From the IMG/VR virus record IMGVR_UViG_2917886563_000007: 64,000 nucleotides of DNA; one strand, given 5' to 3'. The first letter of the stretch is position 1, and every line of letters begins with the position of its first letter. The translations under genes and the position numbers were made by a program. Positions 709-19,928 of this stretch are shown piece after piece. Under the pieces are notes generated by a model, which did no database searches, was not told where the DNA came from, and saw only the letters and a list, made by a program, of their open reading frames with translations. This stretch comes from a virus. Taxonomy: Duplodnaviria; Heunggongvirae; Uroviricota; Caudoviricetes.

Positions 709-801
709 AAGCAGACTCCTCATGATGGAAAATACATACAAAAAGCCCCGCCGCAAAATCGCGGCAGGGCTCAGGAAACTACGGGTTGGAATGGTTAATG
801 T

Positions 802-1665
802 TCAGAAGAAGAAATCCCAGACTGCACGGGCGACTGATACCACGATGTTGCGTACAGACTGGATAACTGTCCGAACCGGGGCCGGTATGAGTGGCAGGGA
901 ACTTACAGTGTCCAGTACCGAGCCTACTGTTTCACCAAAATCGTCACGGGCTTTTTTATTAACGGCATCGGTACGAAGAGGAGCACTAAGCTGTACCGCT
1001 ACCGGGCTACTGGCCTCACGCGGAAGGCAACGAATCATACGCTCTGCCATCACCCGCAGTCCCCAATGCAGACGAACCGACACCGCACAGATCGGATTTA
1101 CTGGTTGGAATAACTCATGCAGCAAGCAGATTTTGCGACTGATGTTCTGCTTTTGCTCCCTGGAGAGCTTATCACCGCCGCTGGTGGGTTCAGCCTTATC
1201 CGACTGACTGATAACAAACAGCACCTTATGTCGGTAAGCCTCCCCAATTACCTGATGGTAAAATTGTTCATCCACCCCCAGCGCCCGATCATCAGCCTTA
1301 ATCAGCCACAGTACCAGGTCGAGCCGGGGAAGTTGTTCGCGATACAGGGCGGCGTATTCAGTATCGCGCAAACTACTTTCCCCCACGCCTGGTAGATCAA
1401 CAAGGGTCATAACGCTCTCGCCCACTTGCAGGCTAAATTGTAAGGGGACGCGTGTGCAGGCGACTACATCGCTAACCGGTGAAACCTCACTGGCAAACAG
1501 GGCATTGCACAACGACGATTTTCCTGCCCCGGTTTTACCCATAATGCCGATCACAGGCTCGTAGTGAGTAAGCTGGTTTATCTGCTGCAGAATACGCTCC
1601 GATGCCCATTGCGGCAGGTCGGAAAGCGAGTCCTGCAGGTCAAGTAGACCTTCAATTTTTTTCAT
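802..1665 (-). CDS. YfjP/YkfA/YeeP-family GTPase of cryptic prophage islands
   Basis: ORF-track protein with P-loop GIMGKTGAGKSSLCNALF and DLPG motif; likely start MKKIEGLLDL at 1665 preceded by a GGAG RBS. Confidence 0.8.
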   Translation of the reverse strand: MKKIEGLLDLQDSLSDLPQWASERILQQINQLTHYEPVIGIMGKTGAGKSSLCNALFASEVSPVSDVVACTRVPLQFSLQVGESVMTLVDLPGVGESSLRDTEYAALYREQLPRLDLVLWLIKADDRALGVDEQFYHQVIGEAYRHKVLFVISQSDKAEPTSGGDKLSREQKQNISRKICLLHELFQPVNPICAVSVRLHWGLRVMAERMIRCLPREASSPVAVQLSAPLRTDAVNKKARDDFGETVGSVLDTVSSLPLIPAPVRTVIQSVRNIVVSVARAVWDFFF

Positions 1666-1939
1666 CTCAACTCCGCTGAAAAGTAAAACATAAAACGGTA
1701 AAACCAAATGGTTTTACCGTTTAAAAGGAAATGTTCAGGGGAATGATATATATCTTAATGTTTTTAGAATGGATTCATATATGATGTTGATCTTATTCAA
1801 GATATCCTAGAGTATCATTCTGTTGATAACATATTGAATTTGGTTAAAATAATTGAGCCTGATATCCCTTTTTACTGAATTTCAAGAGGTATTGGGTTGT
1901 GTTCGTTCGCCCAATTCTATTGATGACAAGGAAAAGCAA

Positions 1940-4900: not shown

Positions 4901-5014
4901 AAAATAACATATACCCCAGGAGCTATTGAGTGTAGCGTAATTAATAACAAAGTGGTTGATGTTCTTGAAGGAACTATGCCTGCATTTGATAATCGTAGAA
5001 TGAAGTATATGTGA
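1940..5014 (+). CDS. PHP-domain phosphoesterase fused to SbcC/Rad50/OLD-like ABC ATPase with central coiled coil; candidate single-gene defence nuclease
   Basis: ORF track starts at a TTG at 1853; more likely start is ATG 1940 after an aagga RBS. PHP motifs DLHIHT (1985-2002) and GSDAH (2753-2767); Walker A GNKGSGKS (3062-3085); Lys/Glu/Gln-rich heptad-like region about 3400-4300; ABC signature LSPGQRG (4649-4669); Walker B IILDQPEENLD (4718-4750); H-loop VTHN (about 4820-4831). Visibly AT-rich. Confidence 0.75.
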   Translation: MVSSQYPRGSEWHKWDLHIHTPASFHWNGPRFKSDPRSPENAPLVDAMINAMNAAEPIAFAIMDYWTFDGWFALKHRLTQEDAPKLEKTVFPGIELRLMAPMRGRLNAHVLFSDHIPDQELIDFKSKLEVALINKSLSDSALIQIAREAAPDKLRHHSLNQQKILQSDADALKAGSIIAEVTCESYQKAINSVSKNQAIGYMPFDTNDGLTEIERNAHYAFALTLFKTSPIFETRDYATWAAFAGVKVPENERWFDAFQKALNNKPRLAISGSDAHCFVGEPGNNDRRGYGDYPSGKATWIKANPTFDGLMQAIREPAKRSFIGAIPKKRKLVSENRSLFIEKLEVKKSIDSSINESWLDNTDIHLNHDLVAIIGNKGSGKSALADIAALLGNSKQSHHFSFLKENRFRGKTGEPARHFNAKIVWSDEKELTKNLNDNPATENVELIKYIPQGHFEELCNAHVSGQSDAFEKELRSVIFSHADESIRLGAHDFEDLIEKQESSLRSQLESYRSEMHKLNEQVMFIESQMTDEAKKALDEMLAQKVRLLEELIKAKPEEVPEPSNELTQEQQQISEQLSNINQELEKLQKQQESDLEELTKLAGKRKASKNIKAGFEIVKRAVNQFVSEFDSDAKLLGLDIESLVRVDVDEKTLSALDDAGSLREKEIKERQLTQVASKQLILEKKAPLNAQLNAPQQAYQLFKEQLKAWGEKHAALLGNKDDPDTLEGIKHRISKLEQLPSQRLELHEKRNDLTRKIFTILNEQKENRETLFEPVQSLIQNNILIRDEYKLQFRAELSSTADLISNRLFSIVKQASGEFRGESESLSVIKDLMDRHDLNDQESLLMFVQELHRKLESSSKNPVGVASLLRKDRTANEVYDLIFGLEYLEPRYTLMFQDAQIGQLSPGQRGALLLIFYLLVDKGNTPIILDQPEENLDNETIVSLLVPVLTEAKQKRQIIMVTHNPNLAVVCDAEQIIHCEFDRTKGHKITYTPGAIECSVINNKVVDVLEGTMPAFDNRRMKYM

Positions 5015-5024
5015 TGTTTGCATA

Positions 5025-5066
5025 AAACTGCCCATCTATAAGTTTTAGATGGGCAGTTTCTTTCGA
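5025..5066 (+). terminator. Rho-independent terminator after the PHP-ATPase gene
   Basis: Inverted repeat ctgcccatcta / tagatgggcag (5028-5056) followed by a T-rich run. Confidence 0.6.
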
Positions 5067-5195
5067 AGTTACCGGGGGCACATTGGCAGTGCGATAAATC
5101 AATAATATCTTTTATGATATTCGGATTTATATTATGGAATGATATAAGTGCTTATAAACTTTTACTGGAATTTAATGGGGTTGTATTATAACCAA

Positions 5196-5816
5196 CTACC
5201 CTCGACTGCATCCGAAATTTCTGTCACCTTCACCAAATATTTTTGTATCTAACTTGGTTAAATAGTCTAGACGGGTGAGAAGGTCGTTATACACAATGTC
5301 AAAATCCGGATCGTTAACATTCAATACATATCTACAATTCTCCGGGAAATGAACCAGATTCCTGCAATCCTCAGGTTCAAGATTAAGAGCACTATACCAT
5401 GCTCTAGTTATCATATTAGTGAGCGTACCGCTATGTTCATGATGACCCAAGTGATAGTAAGCATCTTTATTGAAAAATAGACAAGTGTGAAAATGACATT
5501 TTCCACTCTGCGTGTATTCCCTTGCCCAGAGTTGGCGTATTGAATTTGGTTTTATTCTAATCCCAGCGCATACTCTACGGTTTTCACTAGCAGCTAATAT
5601 AGCTTTTAATGAATTTATAAAGCGAGATATTGCTCCAGGTTCAAGATTATGAAAACAACAAACTGTGTCGCCATTATCAAGGATTTTCGGATAATGAAGA
5701 TCAACCCTTAACGCCATAGTTTTGGAGAATTGATGAATAGCATTGTTAATCACGGTAGCAATATTGTCTCTATAAGAGATGATATGATTGCCATGAGTAC
5801 CATTATAGATTTTCAT
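5196..5816 (-). CDS. YfjJ/YagK-family protein (island backbone gene)
   Basis: 206-aa ORF; family resemblance to K-12 cryptic-prophage YfjJ/YagK recalled from memory; position between YfjI-like gene and cargo matches CP4-57 order. Confidence 0.55.
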   Translation of the reverse strand: MKIYNGTHGNHIISYRDNIATVINNAIHQFSKTMALRVDLHYPKILDNGDTVCCFHNLEPGAISRFINSLKAILAASENRRVCAGIRIKPNSIRQLWAREYTQSGKCHFHTCLFFNKDAYYHLGHHEHSGTLTNMITRAWYSALNLEPEDCRNLVHFPENCRYVLNVNDPDFDIVYNDLLTRLDYLTKLDTKIFGEGDRNFGCSRG

Positions 5817-6038
5817 AATAATAAGACCATAGTTGCTCTTATCTTAAATAAGAGCATGTTGATTAATATCTTTTCTATAGAGCAAATGAATTAATGTTTT
5901 GGCAATCACATACAACACTTCTATTAGTTATCAATAGAAACGACAATATATTACCTTTCCACCACCATTTACCTATATCAGGTCTGTTCCAGCCTAAAGA
6001 TTACGAGTGCAATTCGCTCTGCATTTAGCTTTGTACTT

Positions 6039-7484
6039 TTACACGATGTATTGTGTGCTGATAGATTGCATATAGTCTATATCAGGACCGATATATAAAG
6101 ATCTTCCACGTTTAGCTATTCTGATTTTTCCTTGCTGAACTAAAATTTCCAATAAACCATCTGCGACTTTCTTTCTTCTCAATCGATTAGGTCCAAAGGA
6201 GTAAATTAACACTTTGTTAAAATAAATTATGGAGTTGTCTTCGCAATATTTTATAACCCAGTTAAATAATTCTTCAGAATCAACTTGTTCCTCTTTTTTA
6301 TCTAGGAGCTTAGGAGGTGAAAATATACGGATATATTCATCTGTAAACCAAAGTGTAATTTCAATTGCTGCCTCTATGGCTTCTAAAGAAATATCACCTT
6401 CCCCATGGTTAAAATAAAATAGAAGTGCTGATATTCTTGCTGCATTTTCTGCAATTTTAGAAGCATAATCTTTGATGTCAGAAAATAATCCAAATCCAAG
6501 CATCCCCATTTCGGACTCTACTTGATTATGAAATTGTATCCATCTTTCTTGTGCTTCCGGAGAAAAGTAGAGGCAGGTCCGTTTGCTGTTTTTATTTGAT
6601 GCAATGTTTGTCTTAATAATCTCCATTAATCTCTTATGAAACAATGGAAGATGTTCATTTGAAGTGACTGGGTTAGTTATTGTTCTGTAACCTTGTTTCG
6701 AGTGAGGTTGACAAATCAAAAATCGATTGAATATCCCAATTCCCTTTGCTATATCACCTTTATTTTTAATATATCTGCTAATAACGCTAGGTTGCGCCAT
6801 CAATCCTGCTGTTAGGGTTGCATTTTTAATTAATCTATCCGGTTCATTCTTTCTTTGCAGTGTGTATGTAGAACCATCCCACATTTTGTTGAGGAAGGGT
6901 AAGTCACCTAGGATATAGCCATTAAATACAGTTCCTGCTTCATCAGAAAAAATTCCGACAGAACGCCAATGACCGGAAAGATAATCTTTTAAAGCAGCGG
7001 GTGTCGCGTCATTAAATATCATCCTATATTTTATTGGTTCTTCTGGGTAAGAAGAAAGAAGTTCTTCAAGTCTTTTACGATGCTCAGAAATATCTCTATT
7101 GCAGCGAATGTCTGACTTGATTTTTGCTATAATTAATTTCTTTTCAATATCTATTATTTCAATTGTGTTTTTGTATGATAGCATTTCATTTAGATGCTTT
7201 TCAAATAACAATTCTTCAAATTCATATATCGGGTTAAATATTTGTTTGTAAACACCTGTTTTCCTTTCTCCAGAATCGGCGATTGTCAACAAATATAATG
7301 ATGCAGGGCCAGTAATGTTATTTATCCTACATACATCTATACTATTCTGACAGGCTAAAGAAATGGCACTTAGTATAGCTGAAGAAATCAATGATAGTGG
7401 GGCTTGAGTATGCTGTTCTACTTCATAGACAGCATTTCTGGCTAGTGAGGGCAGCGTGTGTACAGGGAAATTTTTATCTAACAT
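6039..7484 (-). CDS. YfjI-like large island protein (possibly DUF3987 family)
   Basis: 481-aa ORF immediately downstream of alpA in the same orientation, as yfjI in CP4-57; family assignment from memory only. Confidence 0.5.
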   Translation of the reverse strand: MLDKNFPVHTLPSLARNAVYEVEQHTQAPLSLISSAILSAISLACQNSIDVCRINNITGPASLYLLTIADSGERKTGVYKQIFNPIYEFEELLFEKHLNEMLSYKNTIEIIDIEKKLIIAKIKSDIRCNRDISEHRKRLEELLSSYPEEPIKYRMIFNDATPAALKDYLSGHWRSVGIFSDEAGTVFNGYILGDLPFLNKMWDGSTYTLQRKNEPDRLIKNATLTAGLMAQPSVISRYIKNKGDIAKGIGIFNRFLICQPHSKQGYRTITNPVTSNEHLPLFHKRLMEIIKTNIASNKNSKRTCLYFSPEAQERWIQFHNQVESEMGMLGFGLFSDIKDYASKIAENAARISALLFYFNHGEGDISLEAIEAAIEITLWFTDEYIRIFSPPKLLDKKEEQVDSEELFNWVIKYCEDNSIIYFNKVLIYSFGPNRLRRKKVADGLLEILVQQGKIRIAKRGRSLYIGPDIDYMQSISTQYIV

Positions 7485-7496
7485 AATAACCTCCTT

Positions 7497-7733
7497 TCAT
7501 CGTTTTTCTTCAGAAGCGAAGAGAGTGTGGATATAGCTTTGAACGTCATCCCAGAGCCAGTAGTTTTTTTTGTTAATTTTTTTTGGTCTTACCAAACCAG
7601 ATGGTAATTGATCTTGGCACAACCATTTTCTGATTGTTTGCGGTTTACAATTCAACAGTTGTGCTAAATCATTAGTAGAAACAAGTCGGATGTTGCTTGG
7701 AGATGATGCTTCACTTATTTGAAATTTGCTCAT
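7497..7733 (-). CDS. alpA: AlpA-family phage/island transcriptional regulator (excisionase-like HTH)
   Basis: 78-aa protein MSKFQISEASSP...LLNCKPQTIRKW...; AlpA-type HTH; located next to a P4-type integrase. Confidence 0.8.
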   Translation of the reverse strand: MSKFQISEASSPSNIRLVSTNDLAQLLNCKPQTIRKWLCQDQLPSGLVRPKKINKKNYWLWDDVQSYIHTLFASEEKR

Positions 7734-8206
7734 GATGCCACCCCGGAGATAAAAACGTGGGCAAATGAAGCAATAGGTAGGACGCAGGCTTTGTTTAAGA
7801 GATAGGAGGCGTTTAAGGAAAGGATAGAGAATAAGGAGGATGATCTGAGTACACTTGCAGGCTCGGGATCACCACCTTCACTTGAACCGGTGGAAAAAGA
7901 TCCCTTTGCTGACTTGGTGCTACTACGATGCGCTCTCGAGGTATGAGTTTTAAATGGCACTGAACGAGAAATCACGTTAGCTAAAGCAATTTTGCATGCC
8001 TTGTTTCGTACATTTTTCCGATAAATAGCCTGATCCATTACATGAAGGGCGACTTTCTTATAGTGGTTTTTAAACCATTGCTCAATGGGGAGTCCATTAG
8101 ATGATGGTGAATGGTATTGGATTTCAAAATTGATCTCGGGCAGTCCAAGCAGATTCGCCAGAATCTCTTGACTATCATCTAACACGGGGTTGTAACTATT
8201 AAACAT
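7730..8206 (-). CDS. Hypothetical island protein between integrase and alpA
   Basis: 158-aa ORF whose stop overlaps the alpA start; no recognisable motif. Confidence 0.4.
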   Translation of the reverse strand: MFNSYNPVLDDSQEILANLLGLPEINFEIQYHSPSSNGLPIEQWFKNHYKKVALHVMDQAIYRKNVRNKACKIALANVISRSVPFKTHTSRAHRSSTKSAKGSFSTGSSEGGDPEPASVLRSSSLFSILSLNASYLLNKACVLPIASFAHVFISGVAS

Positions 8207-8334
8207 TCTGATATTTCTCCTCTAGGGTCGTGAACTAATGAGGCGATTTTTATCCAAGTTTCAATATCTGTCAATAACTCTTTTATTTTTCAGGGTTAAT
8301 GTAACATATTGATATTTAATGAAATCAACGCGTA

Positions 8335-9651
8335 TCAACACTCGATTTTTTCATAAATAGAGGCCTGTTCTAAGATCCAGCTCTCAATTTTTTCATGCCA
8401 TTTACGCAACAAATCTAATGGACGACGACGGTAGTGTTTCTCAGCTAGAGCACTAGGTTTATGGCCCATAATCTGCGCAACTATGCCAGTTGGCACTTCG
8501 ACCCATTCGGCGAGCGTACCAAAACTACGACGTAATCCATGCAGGCTGATGTGTGGTAATTCAGCCTTAGCTAAGGCCCGATTGTGTGCGGAACGCGGTT
8601 CAATAATTTTGCCGCTTTTGCTATTACTCCTGAAAACCCAATCCTCCTTATTTACGTCAGAATTTGGTGTTTGCACCAATGCGCGTAACAGGTGAGTGAC
8701 ATAAGGAGTAAGAGGTATGATACGTTCGCCTTCGATCTTGTCTTTAATCCGCATACTTGACCATTTGAAATCGACGTCAGACCACCGAAGTGACGCAATT
8801 TCTTCGCGTCGCGCTCCGGTGAGTAAAAGTACCTGGAGATAGGCCGATGCAATGGGATTGTTGAGGTTACGCACGGCACTGAACCAGCTTTTTAACTGTT
8901 CTTTTTGTAAGCAATCTCCCGCTTTACTCGCTGATACTGGAACCAATTTTCTCACGTTATGATCTTGTGCAAGATCGCCATGGATTATTCCCTGATATTT
9001 TTTCTGGTAATTAACCCATTTGATAAATGCACGCAACAGACGGTAGGCATGAGCAGTGACGGTAGGCCGATTTTGTCTTTCTGTACTTAGCCATGCGGCA
9101 ATGTTCTCTGGTGTTAGTTCCGATAACGGTAGGTCGAGCAAGCTAGCCAATGGTCCAGCCGAGGTTGGGCCCCGGCCTCTTTTTTTACTTTCTCCTCCAC
9201 GGCTGGACAAGTTCACGTGATCGGCAATATAACGTGCAGAGTAAGGACGTTTAGTTTTTGCGCTGATTCCGGTTCTCAATTCTTGAAGATAATCTTCCCA
9301 AGCGCTTGAGAAGGTTACCTTCGTTTTACGAGATTCAGCCTGCTGTGATTCCGCTTCAGCAATTTTTTCTGCTTTAGCTATACGCGGATCTATCCCAGTA
9401 TCGATTAATGTTTGCAGCCGCCTGGCTTCGGCCCTGGCATCATCAATCCTCCAATCGTTAATGTTGCCAATGGTCATGCGAAGGGTTTTTCCCGCATATA
9501 CGCTTTGGAACACAAAAGCTTTTGTTCCGCGAGTTGCCCGGCATGCCAGAGTTGTTACATCCGCATCCCAAAGAAATGCTTGGTTTTTCCCTTCAGTTAA
9601 AGCAAATTTTCGAATACGCTCGAAGGTGAGTTTTTGTCTCGGAAGTGCCAT
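8335..9651 (-). CDS. int: P4-type tyrosine integrase
   Basis: Likely start MALPRQKLTFERI at 9651; C-terminal tyrosine-recombinase motifs (ARREE, HGLRRSF, GHK...Y); adjacent to a tRNA-Thr 3' fragment. Confidence 0.9.
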   Translation of the reverse strand: MALPRQKLTFERIRKFALTEGKNQAFLWDADVTTLACRATRGTKAFVFQSVYAGKTLRMTIGNINDWRIDDARAEARRLQTLIDTGIDPRIAKAEKIAEAESQQAESRKTKVTFSSAWEDYLQELRTGISAKTKRPYSARYIADHVNLSSRGGESKKRGRGPTSAGPLASLLDLPLSELTPENIAAWLSTERQNRPTVTAHAYRLLRAFIKWVNYQKKYQGIIHGDLAQDHNVRKLVPVSASKAGDCLQKEQLKSWFSAVRNLNNPIASAYLQVLLLTGARREEIASLRWSDVDFKWSSMRIKDKIEGERIIPLTPYVTHLLRALVQTPNSDVNKEDWVFRSNSKSGKIIEPRSAHNRALAKAELPHISLHGLRRSFGTLAEWVEVPTGIVAQIMGHKPSALAEKHYRRRPLDLLRKWHEKIESWILEQASIYEKIEC

Positions 9652-9833
9652 TTTTGGGCTCCAGATGAGAAAGGTTACATCACCATAATGTAACGGCTGG
9701 TGTAAGTAAATTAGGGGAATACACATCAACACCTGTCAATTTTTATCAACAGGTGTGTTTTATAAGTTAATGTTTTATAATGAACTAATTGTTTTAAGAG
9801 TAGGTTTTTAAAGGGGTAAAAGTATAATAACGT

Positions 9834-9884
9834 CGCATTCGTAATGCGAAGGTCGTAGGTTCGACTCCTATTATCGGCACCATC
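9834..9884 (+). repeat. tRNA-Thr (thrW-type) 3' fragment; direct repeat, attL of lambdoid prophage and right-end repeat of the P4-like island
   Basis: cgcattcgtaatgcgaaggtcgtaggttcgactcctattatcggcacca matches the anticodon-to-CCA half of tRNA-Thr(CGU) as recalled; the upstream sequence does not match the 5' half, so not an intact gene. Confidence 0.8.
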
Positions 9885-9896
9885 TAAATCAATAAG

Positions 9897-11060
9897 TTAC
9901 ACATCATTAGTACCTTCCTTATTTTTTGACTGGGACAAATTTGGGACCGATGGGTTCAGGATCGAGTCTATTTGCCGTGCGTGTTCGGTAAGGTGATTAG
10001 GTGCAAGGTGAGCATATCGACGAACCATTTCGATAGACTCCCAGCCTCCCATTTCCTGTAACACTGACAACGGGACTCCGGCTTGAACCAGCCAACTTGC
10101 CCAGGTGTGTCTCAAGTCGTGAAATCTGAAATCATCAATACCAGCCCGTCTCAGCGCCGCTTTCCAGGCTGTGTTTGCGTCATACCGCATCTTCCTTACT
10201 GTTGGCGCTTTCGTTCCGTCTGGTTTGGTACAGCTTTCCTTGTACACAAATACCCAACGGTGATGATTCCCGATTTGTTTTTTCAATACGCGACATGCAG
10301 TATCATTCAGCGCAACGCCAATTGCGCGGTTTGATTTACTCTCTTCCGGGTTTATCCATGCCACCCGGCGCTGCATATCTATTTGTTGCCATTCAAGGTT
10401 GATGATGTTCGAGCGTCTTAAACCTGTTGCCAGTGCAAATTCAACAACAGACTTTAATGGCTCCGGACATTCATCAATCAGCCTTTGTGCTTCATGAGGC
10501 TCCAGCCAGCGGATCCGTTTATTCTTTGGTTGAGGCACTTTAATAATTGGTGCCTTATCCAGCATTTTCCATTCACGCTCTGCGGCTCTTAGCAGGGCCT
10601 TTATAAATGAAAGATGCGTTGCCTTCGTTGCAACGGACGCTGGTTTTGGCGTGTATTCTGGAACTGGTTTCCCTTTTTTTCTGCATGCTTCTGCCCTGAG
10701 TTTCCAGTTTTCCTCATGACGCCGGTTCGTCATTTTCTGCATTGCTGAATAAATTTTTGATTCAGTAATGTCTCTTAGTTGCATTCCTGCGAAATGTTGA
10801 AGCCAGAATCCGATCCGGCTTTTGTCATCGTCCAGTGATTTTTTATGTGCTTTCTCTTCGAGCCACCTGACACACGCCTCCTCGAACGTCATATCAGGTA
10901 TTTCACCAAGTTTGCTGACCCGCCATGCTTCAGCCTTTAGCTTGTCATGGAGCTCTGTCGCCTGCCTTTTGTCCTTTGTTCCAAGAGACTGTTTAAATCT
11001 TTTACCGTTCGGCAATGTGAAACTGGCGTACCATATTTCACCTCTGCGGAAGAGTGACAT
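9897..11060 (-). CDS. int: Phage tyrosine integrase, P22-type (thrW-specific)
   Basis: 387-aa protein [24 protein letters not shown]... close to P22 Int as recalled; stop lies 13 bp from the att repeat. Confidence 0.9.
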
Positions 11061-11287
11061 TTTCTTTCCTCTGTTATGCCATCACCCGCGCTCACCTGGA
11101 CAGTATGCAGCGGAGACTGAAGCGCCGCAATGCAGGCTTGTCGTGTTGTGAGGTAAGGAGATTTTGGTTTAGTGGGGTCTTTGCGTGTTGCCTGTAGGCG
11201 GCCTGTTCGTATCCAGTTGGTAGCGGTAGGTCTGGATATCTTGAGAAACTGACAGGCCTCATCGAGTGTGAGGCTGTATGATTCCAT
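10937..11287 (-). CDS. xis: Excisionase (P22 Xis-like)
   Basis: Start [31 protein letters not shown] at 11287; overlaps the int 5' end. Confidence 0.8.
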
Positions 11288-11537
11288 GGTTACCTCTGCT
11301 TTTTGAACGCATGTCACGTAACTTCTTAATGTGTTCTGCCGTTTCGATCTCTTCTGCTATCCGATCTGCATCAGCTTTATTCACAGGTTCAAAGTCATGA
11401 TTAAAGCGGAACATGCTGGCGATACATGTTCTGCCTTTTCGGATGTAGTGAACTTTGTTGTGAGTGGAACGCAGGATTTTGCAGGGAGTGCCGTGTTGGT
11501 CGACGTACCAGGTGTTAGGGTAAATCACTCTGAACAT
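11259..11537 (-). CDS. Hypothetical early-region protein
   Basis: 92-aa ORF in the early leftward operon; start uncertain. Confidence 0.4.
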   Translation of the reverse strand: MFRVIYPNTWYVDQHGTPCKILRSTHNKVHYIRKGRTCIASMFRFNHDFEPVNKADADRIAEEIETAEHIKKLRDMRSKSRGNHGIIQPHTR

Positions 11538-11850
11538 TCTTGGCCTTGTGTTGTGCGGATTGATATTCAGTGCTGATATTCACCTTTATAGCGAACACCT
11601 TTACCGGTTTATCGCCAAAGTGCGGATGTGTGATTGTCTTCACTTCATATCCGTCATACGGAACATCAATTCTGCGACTGAAATCGTCACGCTTCGGATA
11701 TCCCTTCGTGATGATCAGACTGCCATACTCGCGGTTAACGAGGCGCTTTTTCCAGTAGTCATTAACAAGGCGATACTCTTCCGTTTTCTCTCCGCGAATC
11801 ATGGCATCGAAGTATTCACTTTTAACAGCAAGTTGCAGGTTAGCCATCAC
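11515..11850 (-). CDS. Hypothetical early-region protein
   Basis: 111-aa ORF, stop/start coupled to neighbours. Confidence 0.45.
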   Translation of the reverse strand: MMANLQLAVKSEYFDAMIRGEKTEEYRLVNDYWKKRLVNREYGSLIITKGYPKRDDFSRRIDVPYDGYEVKTITHPHFGDKPVKVFAIKVNISTEYQSAQHKAKNVQSDLP

Positions 11851-12068
11851 TTAATCCCCCTTTGTTTGCGGATAAGCTCCAGATCTTGCTGGCAACTGGC
11901 ACAAGTCCGACAACCCTGAACGGCCAGTCGTCTTCGTTCATCTATCGGATCGCCACACTCACAACAATGAGTGGCGGATACAGCCAGGTGGTTCAGACGG
12001 CGCATTTTTATTGCTGTGTTGCGCTGTAATTCTTCGATTTCTGATGCTGAATCAATGAGGTCTGCCAT
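11847..12068 (-). CDS. TraR/DksA-family C4 zinc-finger protein
   Basis: 73-aa protein with CCECGDPIDERRRLAVQGCRTCASC four-cysteine motif. Confidence 0.7.
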   Translation of the reverse strand: MADLIDSASEIEELQRNTAIKMRRLNHLAVSATHCCECGDPIDERRRLAVQGCRTCASCQQDLELIRKQRGIK

Positions 12069-12164
12069 CTCATTAATCCCTGAATTGTTGGTTAATACGC
12101 GTGAGGGTGAATGCGAATAATAAAAAAGGAGCCTGTAGCTCCCTGATGATTTTGCTTTTCATGT

Positions 12165-12380
12165 TCACCGTTCCTTAAAGACGCCGTTTAACATGCCGAT
12201 CGCCAGGCTTAAATGAGTCGGTGTGAAGCCCATCAGCGTTACCGTTTCGCGGTGCTTCTTTAGTACGCTACGGCAAATGTCATCGACGTTTTTATCCGGA
12301 AACTGCTGTCTGGCTTTTTTGATTTCAGAATTAGCCTGGCGGGCAATGCTGCGAAGGGCGTTTTCTTGCTGATGTGTCAT
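12165..12380 (-). CDS. Hypothetical small early protein
   Basis: ORF-track protein; start choice (12380 or upstream) uncertain. Confidence 0.3.
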   Translation of the reverse strand: MTHQQENALRSIARQANSEIKKARQQFPDKNVDDICRSVLKKHRETVTLMGFTPTHLSLAIGMLNGVFKER

Positions 12381-12456
12381 TGAACAAGTCCCATGTCGGC
12401 AAGCATAAGCACACAGAATATGAAGCCCGCTGCCAGAAAAATGCATTCCGTGGTTG

Positions 12457-13014
12457 TCATGCAGCCTCCCGACGGGCAAGAATCCTTGAGCCGAACGCCA
12501 TCAACTCGCCACGATCAACGGTCGTAAAGTGGCAGTGTGTACGGGGGTATGGGTGCCAGATAATGAGCATCGAGCCTTTATTATTTCCACTCACGGGTTT
12601 CCCGGTGAGTGGGTTAATAAATGCCAGTCGTCCTGCCGTGATGAATCTGACCTCACTGGCGGTTTGTATCGCTTCATGAAACCATCCGACAGATGTGTCA
12701 GCAGGCAGTAACATTACACATCCCACACTACTGAATTTGTTTTCAGTGGCTGCCTTTTTCACAAAAGGGGAAATATTGCTGTATGGTGGATTCAGCCAGA
12801 CATAACCAGAGGCATATCCCATTGCTTCAGGCCATGAAGTGGTTAATGTGTTCTGCTCCTGTGAGATAAAAAGCCGACATAGCCGGTTTTTTTCGTTGGC
12901 TGCAGCATCAAGTTGAAAAACGAACTCTGCATTAAGCGCAGCAAAAATCTCTGGTGGTGTGCGCCAGCTGTCGCGATGTTCGGCAGGAGTATTGCTTCCG
13001 GTGAAATCAGTCAT
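12457..13014 (-). CDS. Phage DNA N6-adenine methyltransferase (Dam-like)
   Basis: 185-aa protein with WRTPPEIF and LNPPYS (NPPY) motifs. Confidence 0.8.
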   Translation of the reverse strand: MTDFTGSNTPAEHRDSWRTPPEIFAALNAEFVFQLDAAANEKNRLCRLFISQEQNTLTTSWPEAMGYASGYVWLNPPYSNISPFVKKAATENKFSSVGCVMLLPADTSVGWFHEAIQTASEVRFITAGRLAFINPLTGKPVSGNNKGSMLIIWHPYPRTHCHFTTVDRGELMAFGSRILARREAA

Positions 13015-13165
13015 ACAGCCCCCCGTTTATTATTTATCTCCTCAGCCAGCCGCTGTGCTTTCAGTGGATTTCTGATAACAGAAAGGCCGGGAAATACCCA
13101 GCCTCGCTTTGTAACGGAGTAGATGAAAGTGATCGCGCCTACCCGGATATTATCGCGAGGATGCT

Positions 13166-13846
13166 TCATCGCCATTGCTCCCCAAATACAAAACCAATTT
13201 CAGCCAGTGCCTCGTCCATTTTTTCGATGAACTCCGGCACCATCTCGTCAAAATTCGCCATGTACTTTTCATCCCGCTCAACCACGACATAATGCAGGCC
13301 TTCACGCTTCATGCGCGGGTCATAGTTGGCAAAGTACCAGGCATCTTTTCGCGTCACCCACATGCTGTACTGCACCTGGGCCATGTAAGCCGACTTTATG
13401 GCCTCGAAACCACCGAGCCGGAACTTCATGAAATCCCGGGAGGTAAACGGGCATTTCAGCTCAAGGCCATTGCCGTCACTGCATAAACCATCGGGAGAGC
13501 AGGCGGTGCGCATACTTTCGTCGCGATAGATGATCGGGGATTCAGTAACATTCACGCCGGAAGTGAATTCAAACAGGGTTCTGGCGTCGTTCTCGTACTG
13601 TTTTCCCCAGGCCAGCGCCTTAGCATTAACTTCCGGAGCCACACCGGTGCAAACCTCAGCCAGCAGGGTGTGGAAGTAGGACATTTTCATGTCAGGCCAC
13701 TTCTTTCCTGAGCGGGGCTTTGCTATCACGTTGTGAACTTCTGAAGCGGTGATGACGCCGAGCCGTAATTTGTGCCATGCATCATCCCCCTGTTCGACAG
13801 CTCTCACGTCGATCCCGGTACGCTGCAGGATAATGTCCGGTGTCAT
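13166..13846 (-). CDS. exo: Lambda-type exonuclease (Red alpha)
   Basis: 226-aa protein [40 protein letters not shown]... essentially lambda Exo as recalled. Confidence 0.95.
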
Positions 13847-14628
13847 GCTGCCACCTTCTGCTCAGTGGCTTTCTGTTTCAGGAATCCAAGAGCTTTCGCT
13901 GCTTCGGCCTGTGTCAGTTCTGACGATGCACGAATGTCGCGGCGAAATATCTGGGAACAGAGCGGCAATAAGTCGTCATCCCATGTTTTATCCAGGGCGA
14001 TCAGCAGAGTGTTAATCTCCTGCATGGTTTCATCGTTAACCGGAGTGATGTCGCGTTCCGGCTGACGTTCTGCAGTGTATGCGGTATTTTCGACAATGCG
14101 CTCGGCTTCATCCTTGTCATAGATACCCGCAAATCCGAAGGCGAGACGGGCACACTGAATCATGGCTTTATGCCGTAACATCCGTTTGGGATGCGACTGC
14201 CACGGCCCCGTGATTTCTCTGCCTTCGCGGGTTTTGAATGGTTCGCGGCGGCATTCATCCATCCACTCGGTAACGCAGATCGGATGATTGCGGTCCTTGC
14301 GGTAAATCCGGCATGTACAGGATTCATTGTCCTGCTCAAAGTCCATGCCATCAAACTGCTGGTTTTCATTGATGATGCGGGACCAGCCATCAACGCCCAC
14401 CACCGGAACGATGCCGTTCTGCTTATCAGGGAAGGCGTAAATTTCTTTCGTCCACGGATTAAGGCCGTACTGGTTGGCGACGATCAGCAATGCGATGAAC
14501 TGCGCATCGCTGGCATCGCCTTTAAATGCTGTCTGGCGAAGAGTGGTGATCAGTTCCTGTGGGTCGACAGAATCCATGCCGACACGTTCAGCCAGCTTCC
14601 CTGCCAGCGTTGCGAGTGCTGTACTCAT
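13843..14628 (-). CDS. bet: Lambda Bet (Red beta) single-strand annealing protein
   Basis: 261-aa protein [37 protein letters not shown]... as lambda Bet. Confidence 0.95.
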
Positions 14629-14633
14629 CCGTT

Positions 14634-14930
14634 TTATACCTCTGAATCAATATCAACCTGGTGGTGAGCAATGGTTTCAACCATGTACCGGATGTGTTCT
14701 GCCATGCGCTCCTGAAACTCAACATCGTCATCAAACGCACGGGTAATGGCTTTTTTGCTGGCCCCGTGGCGTTGCAAATGATCGATGCATAGCGATTCAA
14801 ACAGGTGCTGTGGAAGACCTTTTTCCATGTCGTCTGCCAGTTCTGCCTCTTTCTCTTCACGGGCGATCTGCTGGTAGTGACGCGCCCAGCTCTGAGCCTC
14901 AAGACGATCCTGAATGTAACAAGCGTTCAT
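14634..14930 (-). CDS. gam: Lambda Gam (RecBCD inhibitor), short form
   Basis: 98-aa protein [56 protein letters not shown]... as lambda Gam. Confidence 0.9.
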
Positions 14931-15005
14931 GGCTGAACTCCTGAAAATGGCTGTGAAAATATCGCCAGCGAAATGCCAGGCTGATTAGAAAAACAGGAAA
15001 GGGGA

Positions 15006-15212
15006 TTAGTGATTCAGGCCGTTGCCGCGTCCGTCAAGAAAAACTTCCACGAGCAAGTCACGGGTATAAGTGCGCTCGATGCCGCGATGCAGATAAAGCC
15101 GTCCGCGTAAATTAGCTGATGCTGTCCAGGTACCATCTTTGTGTTTGACCAGCATTCCTGGCATGACCGCACCGCGATTAACGGTCTGCGCTCCGTAATG
15201 TTGATGAACCAT
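15006..15212 (-). CDS. Hypothetical small protein in the kil/cIII position
   Basis: 68-aa ORF downstream of gam; overlaps an alternative-frame ORF; identity not established. Confidence 0.3.
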   Translation of the reverse strand: MVHQHYGAQTVNRGAVMPGMLVKHKDGTWTASANLRGRLYLHRGIERTYTRDLLVEVFLDGRGNGLNH

Positions 15213-15769
15213 AAAAACCCCTGCCCGTAAGCTGGGCTGCTGAACATATAGAGACTTCTGCGCGTATTCAGGCGGTGGATGGCCGCCGGTGTCATAACTA
15301 AGCCGCCTCGTTGAAGCGACTGAGGTATGAAGTATCGAGTTGATTTCAGCTGGTCACACCGACGTTCACGCGTCCGTTTCACCCCTCGCACTCCCCGTAG
15401 CCTGCTGAAATTCAAGCTGCGGATCTAAGCGGTCATCGCAACGGTGAAGCGGTAAATCAGGAGATTGCCGCATTCCTGTGCCGTTGTGATGGATTTATAA
15501 TACCTATTGCTATTGATTATATCAATACGTATAAGTATCGAGCGATAGCGTTTGTTGTTATGCTGTTGATACTGAAAAGAATTTAATGTTGAGGTTTTTT
15601 GTGACATTCGACTCAAAATGGATTTTGCAATTAAATAACCAATTGATAACAATGAAAACATTACGGAGAACTAGATAGGCCAAATTACTTGCCACGAAGA
15701 TAGTTGTAAGCGTTGATAACAATGGTATTGAGGAGGGATACCCCCGACAATTGCGTCAGGGGGGAGGGA

Positions 15770-16156
15770 TTATTGGGCTTTAATGTAATTTTTCAACTTT
15801 GCAGTTTGCTCTACAGCGCTAGGAATGCATCCAAACATATTTGCGCATGAAGTTTGAACAACAATTTCGTTCTTATCGTTTCCTAAAGGTGTTTTTACAA
15901 CCTGATATCCAAGCACGGCACTATTTCCAATAGGAGTGTATGTGGAAATTACCGTTTCATCTGCCATCTGAATTTTCCAACCAGAATTCATTGCTATCCA
16001 AGCTTTGGCTCTCGACCAATATGTATCGCATTGCTCTTTACCTTGACAGTAAACTGGTTGTTGAGCTTGTGCGGCAATTTGGGGATCTATTTTCTGAGCA
16101 CATCCAGAGATGCTAATCAGAATAGCTGCTGTAACGAATAGTTTTCTCATTGACAT
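15770..16156 (-). CDS. Predicted lipoprotein in the rex position downstream of cI; candidate lysogen-expressed exclusion/moron protein
   Basis: N-terminus MSMRKLFVTAAILISISGCAQK has a signal peptide and lipobox ISGC; gene starts ~45 bp downstream of the cI stop on the same strand (start 16156 or 16150). Confidence 0.65.
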   Translation of the reverse strand: MSMRKLFVTAAILISISGCAQKIDPQIAAQAQQPVYCQGKEQCDTYWSRAKAWIAMNSGWKIQMADETVISTYTPIGNSAVLGYQVVKTPLGNDKNEIVVQTSCANMFGCIPSAVEQTAKLKNYIKAQ

Positions 16157-16198
16157 TTCCTTTGTTTTGAATATACAACAAATAAATTGGCAAAAAAA

Positions 16199-16891
16199 TT
16201 ATCCGTGTTTTCTATATGTCTGCGGCATGCTTCCAATGACTTTACCGAAGATGAACACTCGGTTCATCTCGTCTTTCTCGATCGGGTCCCACGGTGAGTA
16301 GCTCTTGTTATCAGAGATAACCAGCAGCTTATCCTTCATCATTTGCAGGCGCTTTACATGGGCTGTGTCGTCGTACAGAAACGCATAGATACCATCACCG
16401 TCGAAAGATTTAACTGTGATATCAACGAACAGCAGATCACCTGGTTCGATCGTTCCTGACATGCTGTCACCGCGCACGTTAATGATGCGGATATTTTCCG
16501 CCTTCCTGCCATCGAACATGTGACGAGCATCGTCAAACGAGTACTCAACCGAGCGTAGAACTTCTACAAACTCACGATTGATGACACCCGGCCCGGCACT
16601 GACTTCTATATCAAGAACGTCAATCTTGAAGTATTTGGAATGGTTGACAGCAGGCTTTTCTGATTGTTGACCGTCATTTCTCATCGGGCCTATGCCTGAC
16701 GAGAGCCACTCTGTTCGAACACCCAATGCATTAGCTATTTCAACAATTTTTGTTGAGCCGCGCGCGTTGCCGCTTGTCAGTCTCCAGATTGTGGGTTGAG
16801 CTACGCCAGACGCCTTTGCAAGAGCGCCTTGAGACATTCCAGATTGTTCCATCGCTAGGTTTAAGCGATCAGCAAGAGTTTCTTTTTTCAT
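16199..16891 (-). CDS. cI: CI-type prophage repressor (HTH_XRE + S24 LexA-like peptidase domain)
   Basis: Start MKKETLADRLNLAMEQSGMSQGALAKASGVAQPTIWRL at 16891; C-terminal S24 domain (RGDSMSGTIEPGDLLFVD ... VKRL); divergent from cro. Confidence 0.85.
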   Translation of the reverse strand: MKKETLADRLNLAMEQSGMSQGALAKASGVAQPTIWRLTSGNARGSTKIVEIANALGVRTEWLSSGIGPMRNDGQQSEKPAVNHSKYFKIDVLDIEVSAGPGVINREFVEVLRSVEYSFDDARHMFDGRKAENIRIINVRGDSMSGTIEPGDLLFVDITVKSFDGDGIYAFLYDDTAHVKRLQMMKDKLLVISDNKSYSPWDPIEKDEMNRVFIFGKVIGSMPQTYRKHG

Positions 16892-17000
16892 AAGTTTTAA
16901 TTTATACGCTTGCGTATTGATGGTCAAAAACGTTTTGCTATTGCTTGAGTTAATACGCATTGCTATTATCTATTTATTGCAATACCAATAGGAATTGATA
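16892..17000. promoter_or_regulatory. cI/cro divergent promoter-operator region (candidate OR)
   Basis: Palindrome ATACGCTTGCGTAT (16904-16917), repeated half-site ATACGC (16953-16958), palindrome TATTGCAATA (16976-16985) between the divergent repressor genes. Confidence 0.5.
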
Positions 17001-17228
17001 ATGACAAATCAAACCATTCAACTCGCAATCAGTATTACAGGTAGTCAAAAACGACTGGCAGATCTCTGCGGTGTAGCCCAACCCACGGTTTGGCGTTGGC
17101 TACACGGTGGCGGAATTGATGCCCGCTATGTAATGAAAATTGTCTCAGCCACTGGTGGAAAGATTAAACCAGCAGATATTCGTCCCGACCTCGCACCATT
17201 GTTTAACGCGAGTAATTCTGCCGCCTAA
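17001..17228 (+). CDS. cro: Cro-like repressor (HTH)
   Basis: Start MTNQTIQLAISITGSQKRLADLCGVAQPTVWRWLHGG at 17001 after an agga RBS; divergent from cI. Confidence 0.7.
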   Translation: MTNQTIQLAISITGSQKRLADLCGVAQPTVWRWLHGGGIDARYVMKIVSATGGKIKPADIRPDLAPLFNASNSAA

Positions 17229-17258: not shown

Positions 17259-17798
17259 ATGCAACCACTTACATACCAACAGACTAGCGGATTTAGCCCG
17301 ACTGCGGTGATAAATCGTTCTCAAACAAAACAGGCGCCAGGCCACGAAAAAATCCGTGATGCCGTTCGCGCCTGGTCGGCTGCAGATAATCAGGATGTTG
17401 TTGCCGCACTCATTGTGAATGAGTATCGGGAGCTGGGCGGCGGCACCATCGATTTCCCTGATGATGTCAGCCGTGCACGCCAGAAGTTGTTCCGCTTCCT
17501 CGATAACAAATTCGATTCTGAAAAATACCGAAATAACGTGCGTGAACTGACCCCGGCAATTCTGGCGGTACTACCGCTGGAATATCGCGGCCACCTGGTT
17601 GAGCAGGATAGCTTTATGGCTCGGCTGGCTGAAATGGAAAAGGAACTCAGTGAGGCAAAGCAGGCGGTCATTCTCAACGCACCACGCCACCAGAAACTGA
17701 AGGAAATGAGTGAAGGTATTGTGTCGATGTTTCGTGTGGACCCAGATCTGGCTGGTCCACTGATGGCGATGGTCACCACCATGCTGGGGGCAATATGA
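17259..17798 (+). CDS. CII-position regulatory protein (YdaT-like?)
   Basis: 179-aa ORF immediately after cro; family assignment tentative. Confidence 0.35.
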   Translation: MQPLTYQQTSGFSPTAVINRSQTKQAPGHEKIRDAVRAWSAADNQDVVAALIVNEYRELGGGTIDFPDDVSRARQKLFRFLDNKFDSEKYRNNVRELTPAILAVLPLEYRGHLVEQDSFMARLAEMEKELSEAKQAVILNAPRHQKLKEMSEGIVSMFRVDPDLAGPLMAMVTTMLGAI

Positions 17799-17884
17799 CA
17801 GGTTCAGAAATGGCGAAAGCCGGTCTGCTGGAACAGAACCGACTTTCAGGTGCAAATCGTAACGCACTCATTGCGGGAGGAATT

Positions 17885-18814
17885 ATGGCAAACACTGCTG
17901 AGATATTCAATTTTCCAGTGCCGGATGTGGCACAAAAGGAGCCGCGCGTGGCAGATCTCGATGATGGTTATACGCGCATTGCTAATGAGTTGCTGGAAGC
18001 TGTGATGCTGGCCGGATTAACACAGCACCAGCTTCTGGTCTTCCTGGCTGTCATGCGCAAAACATATGGCTTTAATAAAAAAATGGATTGGGTGAGCAAC
18101 GAGCAACTTTCCGAGTTAACCGGGATATTGCCGCACAAGTGTTCTGCTGCAAAAAGTGTTCTGGTAAAGCGTGGGATTTTTATTCAGAGCGGGCGGAATA
18201 CCGGCATTAATAATGTGGTCAGTGAATGGTCAACATTACCCGAATCAGGTAAGAAAAATAAAGTTTACCTGAAAGAGGTAAATTTACCTGAATCAGGTAA
18301 AAAAAGTTTACCCAAATCAGGTAAAGACGTTTACCTGAATCAGGTAAACACAAAAGACAAACTAACAAAAGACAATATAAAACCTTATTCGTCCGAGAAT
18401 TCTGGCGAATCCTCTGACCAGCCAGAAAACGACCTTCCTGTGGTGAAACCGGATGCTGCGATTCAGAGCGGCAGCAAGTGGGGGACAGCAGAAGACCTGA
18501 CCGCCGCAGAGTGGATGTTTGACATGGTGAAGACCATCGCGCCATCAGCCAGAAAACCGAATTTTGCAGGGTGGGCTAACGATATCCGCCTGATGCGTGA
18601 ACGTGACGGACGTAACCACCGCGACATGTGCGTGCTGTTCCGCTGGGCATGCCAGGACAACTTCTGGTCCGGTAACGTGCTAAGTCCGGCCAAACTCCGC
18701 GACAAGTGGACCCAACTCGAAATCAACCGTAACAAGCAACAGGCTGGCGTGACAGCCGGAAAACCAAAACTCGACCTGACGAACACTGACTGGATTTACG
18801 GGGTGGAGCTATGA
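17885..18814 (+). CDS. O: Replication initiator, lambda O-like
   Basis: Start MANTAEIFNF...VADLDDGYTRIANELLEA...RKTYGFNKKMD resembles lambda O N-terminus; ori iterons lie inside the gene. Confidence 0.85.
   Translation: MANTAEIFNFPVPDVAQKEPRVADLDDGYTRIANELLEAVMLAGLTQHQLLVFLAVMRKTYGFNKKMDWVSNEQLSELTGILPHKCSAAKSVLVKRGIFIQSGRNTGINNVVSEWSTLPESGKKNKVYLKEVNLPESGKKSLPKSGKDVYLNQVNTKDKLTKDNIKPYSSENSGESSDQPENDLPVVKPDAAIQSGSKWGTAEDLTAAEWMFDMVKTIAPSARKPNFAGWANDIRLMRERDGRNHRDMCVLFRWACQDNFWSGNVLSPAKLRDKWTQLEINRNKQQAGVTAGKPKLDLTNTDWIYGVEL
18237..18347. repeat. Replication origin iterons (five copies of TACC(C/T)GAATCAGGTAA-like repeat) inside O, followed by an A-rich segment
   Basis: Repeats at 18237, 18266, 18284, 18309, 18331; A/T-rich tract 18348-18385; same layout as lambda ori inside O. 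Confidence 0.8.
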
Positions 18815-19512
18815 AAAACATCGCCGCACAGATGGTTAATTTTGACCGTGAGCAGATGCGCCGGATCGCCAATAACATGCCGGAACAGTACGACGAAAAG
18901 CCGCAGGTACAGCAGGTAGCGCAGATTATCAATGGTGTGTTCAGCCAGTTACTGGCAACTTTCCCGGCGAGCCTGGCTAACCGTGACCAGAACGAACTGA
19001 ACGAAATCCGCCGCCAGTGGGTTCTGGCTTTCCGGGAAAATGGGATCACCACGATGGAACAGGTTAACGCTGGAATGCGCGTAGCCCGTCGGCAGAATCG
19101 ACCATTCCTGCCATCACCCGGGCAGTTTGTCGCCTGGTGCCGGGAAGAAGCATCCGTTAACGCCGGGCTGCCAAACGTCAGCGAGCTGGTTGATATGGTT
19201 TATGAGTATTGCCGGAAGCGTGGCCTGTATCCAGATGCAGAGTCTTATCCGTGGAAATCAAACGCGCACTACTGGCTGGTTACCAACCTGTACCAGAACA
19301 TGCGGGCCAATGCGCTTACTGATGCGGAATTACGGCGCAAGGCTGCCGATGAACTGGCCTGTATGACCGCGCGAATTAACCGTGGAGAGGCGATACCTGA
19401 ACCAGTAAAACAACTTCCTGTCATGGATGGCAGGCCGCTTAATCGTGTTCAGGCGCTGGCGAAGATCGCCGAAATCAAAGCGAAATTTGGGCTGAAAGGG
19501 GCGAGTGTATGA
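18811..19512 (+). CDS. P: Replication protein P (DnaB helicase loader), lambda P
   Basis: 233-aa protein MKNIAAQMVNFDREQMRRIANNMPEQYDEKPQVQQVAQIINGVF... as lambda P. Confidence 0.95.
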   Translation: MKNIAAQMVNFDREQMRRIANNMPEQYDEKPQVQQVAQIINGVFSQLLATFPASLANRDQNELNEIRRQWVLAFRENGITTMEQVNAGMRVARRQNRPFLPSPGQFVAWCREEASVNAGLPNVSELVDMVYEYCRKRGLYPDAESYPWKSNAHYWLVTNLYQNMRANALTDAELRRKAADELACMTARINRGEAIPEPVKQLPVMDGRPLNRVQALAKIAEIKAKFGLKGASV

Positions 19513-19808: not shown

Positions 19809-19904
19809 GGTTGACGATAACTAATATCTGGCGCTATATTCTGTGCGTTGCCGCAAAATCGGCACACGGGATTGGCGTCCCGGATAAGGTAATCGCGACT
19901 ACTA

Positions 19905-19928
19905 CACGCCGCGAGCGTGTTTTTTATT
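19905..19928 (+). terminator. Rho-independent terminator downstream of ren
   Basis: cacgc-cgcga-gcgtg hairpin followed by ttttttatt. Confidence 0.55.

Follow-up and report, generated by a model that had tools for sequence, protein, structure and literature searches.

The closest described relative of the locus reported here is the replication origin of phage lambda. Ori-lambda spans positions 39034-39160 and comprises four 18-bp iterons and a 38-bp AT-rich sequence (PMC3349717). Dimers of the initiator protein O bind the inverted-repeat iterons to form an O-some, whose A+T-rich neighbour opens when the DNA is negatively supercoiled; P then brings DnaB, and transcription from pR is needed for activation (PMC5043065, PMC7466680). 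Variations on this theme are also on record. The Stx phages have six iterons, only four of which are strongly bound, the extra promoter-proximal ones being weak yet required (PMC7466680). The iterons of plasmids are direct repeats and are bound by initiator monomers (PMC5043065).

How does a lambdoid prophage with a non-lambda type of iteron compare with these systems? The DNA analysed here (hereafter the window, all 64,000 nucleotides of it) holds a complete-looking lambdoid prophage, whose left part has integrase, bet, and exo and whose right part has terminase, portal, capsid, and tail genes. Within it, positions 18236-18385 are very probably the vegetative (theta-mode) origin of the prophage—an ori-lambda-like element with a different initiator/iteron specificity.

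The iteron array and its register with ori-lambda

Between 18236 and 18347 the window contains five copies of a 17-bp dyad-symmetric repeat with the consensus TTACCYGAATCAGGTAA. Every copy has the internal inverted repeat TTACCTGA.TCAGGTAA, the start-to-start spacing is 29/19/24/23 nt, and the last copy adjoins an A-rich tract:

18236-18252: iteron 1, TTACCCGAATCAGGTAA; extra unit relative to lambda's four
18265-18281: iteron 2, TTACCTGAAAGAGGTAA; variant centre (AAAGAG), aligns to lambda iteron 1
18284-18300: iteron 3, TTACCTGAATCAGGTAA; aligns to lambda iteron 2
18308-18324: iteron 4, TTACCCAAATCAGGTAA; aligns to lambda iteron 3
18331-18347: iteron 5, TTACCTGAATCAGGTAA; aligns to lambda iteron 4 and adjoins the A-rich tract
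18348-18385: A-rich tract, 38 bp, ACACAAAAGACAAACTAACAAAAGACAATATAAAACCT; presumed DNA-unwinding element and hinge between mosaic modules

A first-pass annotation of the sequence had described five iterons and an A-rich tract inside the O coding sequence. The five units, the tract, and their place within O all stand, but the array begins at 18236 (18235 with the flanking T) and not at 18237, and the centre of unit 2 is a variant. Tandem Repeats Finder also picked up this array. The degenerate iteron motif, allowed up to two mismatches, had five matches on both strands of the 64 kb, all of them in the array, whereas a mean of 0.10 matches is expected from shuffled sequence and none of 100 shuffles reached five. 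Since the motif occurs nowhere else in the window, the immunity region included, we rule out that the repeats are operators or DnaA boxes.

As a reference we used the lambda record (NC_001416), in which four iterons are annotated at 39034-39118 inside O. In a three-way DNA alignment, iterons 2-5 of the window fall in register with lambda iterons 1-4, with a spacing of 19/24/23 versus 20/24/23, and the two A-rich tracts match base for base at their starts (ACACAAAAGACA). Unit 1 amounts to a 30-nt insertion on the left relative to lambda, and the linker of the O protein is longer by ten residues.

A mosaic initiator gene and its early-operon context

The array lies within an O-type initiator gene that is followed by a P gene and preceded by two regulatory genes:

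16995-17228, + strand: cro-like gene (Pfam YdaS/HTH)
17259-17798, + strand: cII-like gene (Pfam YdaT)
17885-18814, + strand: O-type initiator gene, 309 aa (Pfam Phage_rep_O, E 1.8e-34)
17885-18235, + strand: part of O coding for the N-terminal (origin-binding) domain, of non-lambda type (54% DNA and 49% protein identity to lambda)
18386-18814, + strand: part of O coding for the C-terminal region, of lambda type (96% DNA identity to lambda), presumed P-interaction domain
18811-19512, + strand: P gene, helicase loader (Pfam Phage_lambda_P, E 9e-62), overlapping the end of O

Over its full length, the O-like protein is 68% identical to lambda O. Followed along the gene, the DNA is 54% identical to that of lambda in the N-terminal part, 49% in the iterons, 76% in the A-rich tract—which is homologous to the AT-rich region of lambda—and 96% from 18386 to the stop, and the protein is almost lambda-identical from about residue 190 of the 339-aa reading frame. 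The Phage_rep_O domain ends just 5' of the repeats, and the lambda-identical C-terminal part begins just 3' of them. Read from these identities, the O-like protein is clearly a mosaic of a non-lambda N-terminal part and a lambda-type C-terminal part. The first-pass annotation had also named lambda P as the helicase loader, and this is borne out by the gene that follows O, whose product shares 227/233 residues (97%) with lambda P.

Where does the O gene start? The reading frame is open from ATG 17795 (17795-18814, + strand; 339 aa), and two relatives, phage PhiR26_1 and a RefSeq E. coli genome, have O annotated from this start, which overlaps the cII-like stop. The likely start is ATG 17885, to which a Shine-Dalgarno sequence and the alignments with lambda O and phi80 gp15 all point: M31, encoded by ATG 17885, aligns with M1 of lambda O, and the Shine-Dalgarno sequence GGGAGGA that precedes this codon is kept in phi80 gene 15. 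The 30 additional codons from ATG 17795 would span the putative oop-like region described below.

The gene order is that of lambda (i.e., a divergent S24-type repressor, cro-like, cII-like, O, and P). Phi80 cII (180 aa) and the cII-like protein (179 aa) share 66% identity, and the early regulatory genes are, to judge from such matches, of phi80/Rac type, with the O C-terminus and P of lambda type. The cro-like and cII-like genes match Pfam families called "YdaS_toxin" and "YdaT_toxin" and are named Cro and cII in the records of relatives. These YdaS/YdaT matches suggested the Rac prophage origin (oriJ, ydaU/ydaV) as a further candidate, which is ruled out; YdaU of K-12 is a DUF1376 protein, not Phage_rep_O. 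A simple consensus scan of the cI-cro interval found no site for a rightward promoter.

Prophage surroundings and distribution of the module

Several other features of the window bear on the prophage as a whole. Rfam matches to isrK (19849-19925) and C4 antisense RNA (19951-20035) lie directly upstream of an ORF (20084-20689) with BRO-N and P22AR_C domains, and the whole of 19849-20689, directly behind the ren-like gene, resembles an inserted secondary immunity cassette of the P1/P7 c4-antirepressor type. At 24600-24992 there is a full-length match to the cspA thermoregulator 5' UTR (Rfam RF01766, 156 bits), implying a probable cold-shock protein gene within the prophage region. No tRNA gene was found anywhere in the 64-kb window, and the integration site is therefore not a tRNA within it. 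The left ~9.8 kb (1-9833, before the integrase) were never contiguous with the prophage in complete E. coli genomes, where the best places cover only 9834-17000.

How widespread is the replication module? A 516-nt query detected the N-terminal/iteron module in 2,428 of 5,426 complete E. coli genomes, and query coverage reached at least 80% in 2,272 of the 5,426 (about 42%), almost always at 95-99% identity. The whole O-P region also occurs, about 96% identical, in 15 named phage records, and laboratory E. coli strains (K-12 MG1655, C) are given as the host in several of them. One E. coli example has the module in the context O-P-ren-emrE-ybcK, which we take to be the DLP12 neighbourhood of K-12.

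So wide a distribution raises the question of whether the origin, although intact in sequence, is an inert relic of a decaying prophage. Many copies in the 2,272 complete E. coli genomes likely sit in defective prophages, and at least one, that in the O-P-ren-emrE-ybcK context, resembles the cryptic DLP12 region. We nevertheless consider this very unlikely for the window: O and P are both full length there, the prophage extends from integrase to tail genes with recombination, immunity, replication, terminase, and capsid genes in between, the module is carried at about 96% identity by named phage records that give laboratory strains as host, and the iteron arms are under purifying selection (see below).

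The flanks of the array

Between the cII-like stop (17798) and ATG 17885 is a gap of 86 nt, which contains a stable hairpin at ~17815-17847 (fold z = -2.45), and a promoter-like site directed leftward (TTGAAT-17-CATAAT, the -10 being TG-extended) lies at 17910..17882 on the minus strand. Both sit where pO/oop lies in lambda and the M3 RNA in phi80. An oop-like antisense RNA may thus be encoded upstream of O (17799-17910, minus strand); the candidate has low similarity to phi80 M3, and its hairpin is without a clear U tail.

On the other side of the array, the A-rich tract (18348-18385) is 63% A and 74% A+T, compared with 52% A+T in the window; a 15-nt direct repeat, ACAAAAGACAA(A/T), lies within the tract. 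An A-rich repeat of the ACAAAAGACAAT type was detected directly in the window, lambda, the Klebsiella phages, P22, and Nil2. The Klebsiella relatives are 90% identical to the window through the tract and 31% identical beyond it. Because homology with Klebsiella phages ends after the tract and homology with lambda rises within it, the tract can be seen as the hinge of two exchangeable modules.

Might the array serve mainly for titration or handcuffing, i.e., to sequester the O protein of a superinfecting phage with the same type of replication or to auto-limit initiation? Plasmids carrying lambda oop and iterons inhibit rep-lambda phages, the AT-rich part being dispensable (PMC3349717), and the window has an oop-like arrangement upstream of its array. 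In lambda, however, this inhibition is an added property of the origin and not an alternative to it, and the A-rich tract, which titration alone would not need, is kept beside the iterons at 90-95% conservation. We therefore consider titration as the main function very unlikely; here too, a role in titration or exclusion would be a property added to the origin.

Conservation of the iteron arms

The repeats are also coding sequence, and so it matters whether it is the DNA or the peptide that is conserved. Three of the iterons translate to LP(E/K)SGK and two to VYL(K/N)(E/Q)VN: one DNA word read in two frames. The O N-terminal gene of the window has counterparts of 79-80% identity in three Klebsiella phages, two of which (6 LV-2017 and GZ7) were read in detail and keep all five units at identical spacings. 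Between these two and the window, the arms are identical at 49/50 positions, compared with 80% in the centres, 56% in the spacers, and 71% in the upstream coding sequence. The same ranking emerged from 51 distinct arrays from viral contigs, with a mean column conservation of 0.994 in the arms, 0.93 in the centres, 0.82 in the spacers, and 0.85 in the upstream coding sequence; in these arrays, the selection pattern in part dictates the values for units 3-5 and for the start of the A-rich tract, and units 1 and 2, which lie outside it, have equally conserved arms.

Because the repeats are read in two frames and their arms are conserved above the spacers and the coding sequence, we conclude that selection acts on the DNA and not on the peptide; by this measure, the iteron arms are under purifying selection. 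A rival idea is that the repeats are a mere repetitive peptide linker between O domains, with selection on the protein and no function as DNA sites; in its favour, the array is translated and lies in a low-complexity linker between two conserved O domains. It has next to no chance of being right. One DNA unit gives unrelated peptides in its two reading frames, its dyad symmetry would be meaningless in a peptide, and the arms are conserved above the flanking coding sequence with spacers below it, which together exclude a repeat that matters only as peptide; the array is also in register with the experimentally defined iterons of lambda.

Co-inheritance of the iterons and the O N-terminal domain

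Are the iterons tied to a particular part of O? We looked from both directions. Among 120 viral contigs picked purely by the presence of two adjacent iterons, the O N-terminal domain was 67-99% identical to that of the window in 119. Conversely, the 80 closest relatives were picked by a profile of the first 117 residues of O, whose codons all precede the repeats; a TTACC-type array was present in all 80 loci, with the 29/19/24/23 spacing in 74. Viral loci also included array variants with 3, 4, 7, and 9 iterons, as expected for tandem sites, and one variant has the 29/19 spacing three times, a duplication of the first two units.

The partner encoded downstream varies from locus to locus. About 74 loci have a close lambda P. 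At least 23 loci, and the Klebsiella phages, have a DnaC-type loader together with another kind of O C-terminus; a distant P, 35-38% identical to lambda P, occurs in four (L055, L080, L094, and L128), and a DnaB-type helicase in one (L101). On the evidence of these samples, the O N-terminal coding region makes up one portable cassette with the iterons and the A-rich tract. In nature, different O C-terminal/loader modules are attached to this cassette, with the junction at the A-rich tract or immediately beyond it. The proposal in the first-pass annotation that the iteron sequence sets replication specificity is supported in the same measure, the iteron type being strictly co-inherited with the O N-terminal domain and independent of the type of loader; indirectly, this also favours binding of the iterons by O.

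Which part of the N-terminal domain might recognise the iterons? Residues 1-69 fail to predict the iteron type: over this stretch, identity is 74% between lambda and mEpX1 and 75% between the window and SEN34, yet in both pairs the iterons differ. Overall identity across residues 70-117 is no clean predictor either; SEN34 and Nil2, only 38% identical in that stretch, have the same iteron arms. A comparison of nine sequences, which include three same-iteron pairs, drew attention to residues ~81-86 (counted from the 17885 start). At this place the window and Klebsiella GZ7 have LPHKCS, P22 and the Providencia phage have (P/S)TKCS, and SEN34 and Nil2 have HHTH. That each same-iteron pair shares a short motif at this place is suggestive, and we put it forward as a hypothesis for the recognition determinant. 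These residues coincide with a helix in a low-confidence single-sequence model (mean pLDDT 42) and fall in non-significant profile matches to the helix-turn-helix and wing of MarR-type regulators. A PDB search with the O protein and with the nine-sequence N-terminal profile returned no significant relative; the only matches, themselves non-significant, were MarR-type winged-helix regulators over residues 67-107 (E 0.4-1.2).

Proposed mechanism and significance

The reading that we favour is that the locus is most likely a lambda-type origin fired by the phage's own O with lambda P as the loader, because all the sequence components are present and the C-terminal O/P half is essentially that of lambda. 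The phage's own O dimers would bind each of the five iterons through their N-terminal domain, and the resulting bent O-some, on supercoiled DNA, would destabilise the A-rich tract of 38 bp. A P-DnaB complex would then be recruited by the lambda-type C-terminal domain of O, so that the host helicase would be loaded at the tract, and rightward early transcription through cro-cII-O would both supply O and P and activate the origin. O binding, unwinding, helicase loading, and the transcription requirement are all modelled here on lambda by homology.

On present sequence evidence, the element itself is of a known, textbook origin type; what is new is its specificity class, which is uncharacterised. 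Its architecture will look ordinary to a specialist, and the understanding of such origins is unchanged. A text search of the available literature library gave no match to the exact iteron sequence. Origin or protein-binding features are present in the records of 434, 21, lambda, and phi80; the record of PhiR26_1, which has the iteron type of the window and was read in detail, is without either, and the records read for relatives call the O gene only "replication protein" or "DNA replication protein O" and show no origin.

What the analysis provides is a putative origin pinpointed for a very common family of E. coli/Klebsiella lambdoid prophages, and its practical value is modest. Possession of lambda P and a lambda-like O C-terminus does not guarantee membership in the rep-lambda specificity group, which bears on predicting replication compatibility, prophage exclusion, and the behaviour of lambda-dv-like vectors. 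The natural chimeras also form a data set for O-iteron recognition and O-loader pairing: one cassette occurs with four kinds of loader and, conversely, N-terminal domains that are 74-75% identical over residues 1-69 carry different iterons. A more far-reaching proposal, which we regard as tentative and rather unlikely, is that the TTACC iterons, with the A-rich tract and the O N-terminal domain, define a distinct replication-specificity (incompatibility) group. Its many resident prophage copies, together with the oop-like element, could serve as decoys that titrate the O protein of superinfecting phages with the same type of replication. If this were true, the specificity group would be among the commonest in E. 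coli, and its type-specific exclusion would be analogous to the "inhibition phenotype" of lambda. The code that pairs O with its iteron arms would, as a separate matter, lie in residues ~81-86, where a putative recognition helix begins.

Comparison with other phage and plasmid origins

How does the iteron itself compare with those of other phages? The first-pass annotation had called for a comparison with lambda, 21, and phi80, which we ran and extended to other phages:

Phages 21 and 434: iteron the same as lambda's own
Phi80: iteron TTCCCGAAAACGGGAA (annotated gp15 sites)
P22: iteron TTTACCAGATCGGTAAA
Providencia PSTNGR2lys: iteron TTTACCGAAACGGTAAA
Nil2: iteron TTAGCCAAGTCGGCTAA
SEN34: iteron TTAGCGGAAGTTGCTAA
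mEpX1: iteron TGTCTCGAAGTTAGAGACA

The iteron of the window differs from those of lambda, 21, 434, and phi80 alike. Array geometry is similar in seven other O-family phages, with a spacing of about 20/24/23 where four copies were found; in SEN34, only three iterons were detected. The iteron of the window matches no sampled type, and the nearest in its arms is that of P22.

The P22 gene 18 origin, along with that of Providencia PSTNGR2lys, resembles the window in having dyad iterons—four, spaced 20/24/23—inside an O-family gene, with near-identical arms (TTTACC...GGTAAA) and the ACAAAAGACAAT A-rich repeat. It differs in the gap between the arms, which is 5 nt in P22 and 7 nt in all five units of the window, in an O N-terminal domain that is 58% identical, and in its partner, the DnaB-type helicase gp12 instead of P. 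By sequence the window thus falls outside the P22 gene 18 group (TTTACC-N5-GGTAAA), although cross-recognition may occur. The phi80 gene 15 origin has the same architecture, with four annotated gp15 sites, and the neighbouring cII-like gene is 66% identical. Its iteron differs, however, and the identity of gp15 is 42% over the whole protein and 40% within the N-terminal domain; the window is therefore excluded from the phi80 specificity group of TTCCCGAAAACGGGAA-type gp15 sites.

The Stx phages 933W and P27 offer a parallel for the extra unit, in that additional promoter-proximal iterons lengthen their O linker as well. Their six iterons are of lambda type and are bound by lambda O, whereas the window has another type and one extra unit instead of two. 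By analogy with the weak promoter-proximal sites of these phages, unit 1 and the variant unit 2 of the window may be weak or accessory sites. Plasmid iteron origins of the Rep/pi type likewise place initiator-binding repeats beside an A+T-rich unwinding region (PMC5043065). The units of the window differ from theirs in being palindromic, for which dimer binding is expected, in having a Phage_rep_O initiator, and in lying inside the initiator gene.

The likeness to ori-lambda (lambda, 434, and 21) goes furthest: the site lies inside O between the parts that encode its domains, the iterons are dyads, and the A-rich tract is homologous. The differences lie in the iteron, ATCCCTCAAAACGAGGGA in lambda versus TTACCYGAATCAGGTAA in the window, in the number of units (four versus five), and in the O N-terminal domain, which is 49% identical. 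With arms TTACC/GGTAA and an iteron region 49% identical to that of lambda, the window is excluded from the rep-lambda specificity group (ATCCCTCAAAACGAGGGA-type; lambda, 434, 21, and the Stx phages). It nonetheless has the parts of a lambda-type origin—a site in the initiator gene, a dyad array, an A+T-rich region of ~40 bp, and, in cis, an O-family initiator and a loader.
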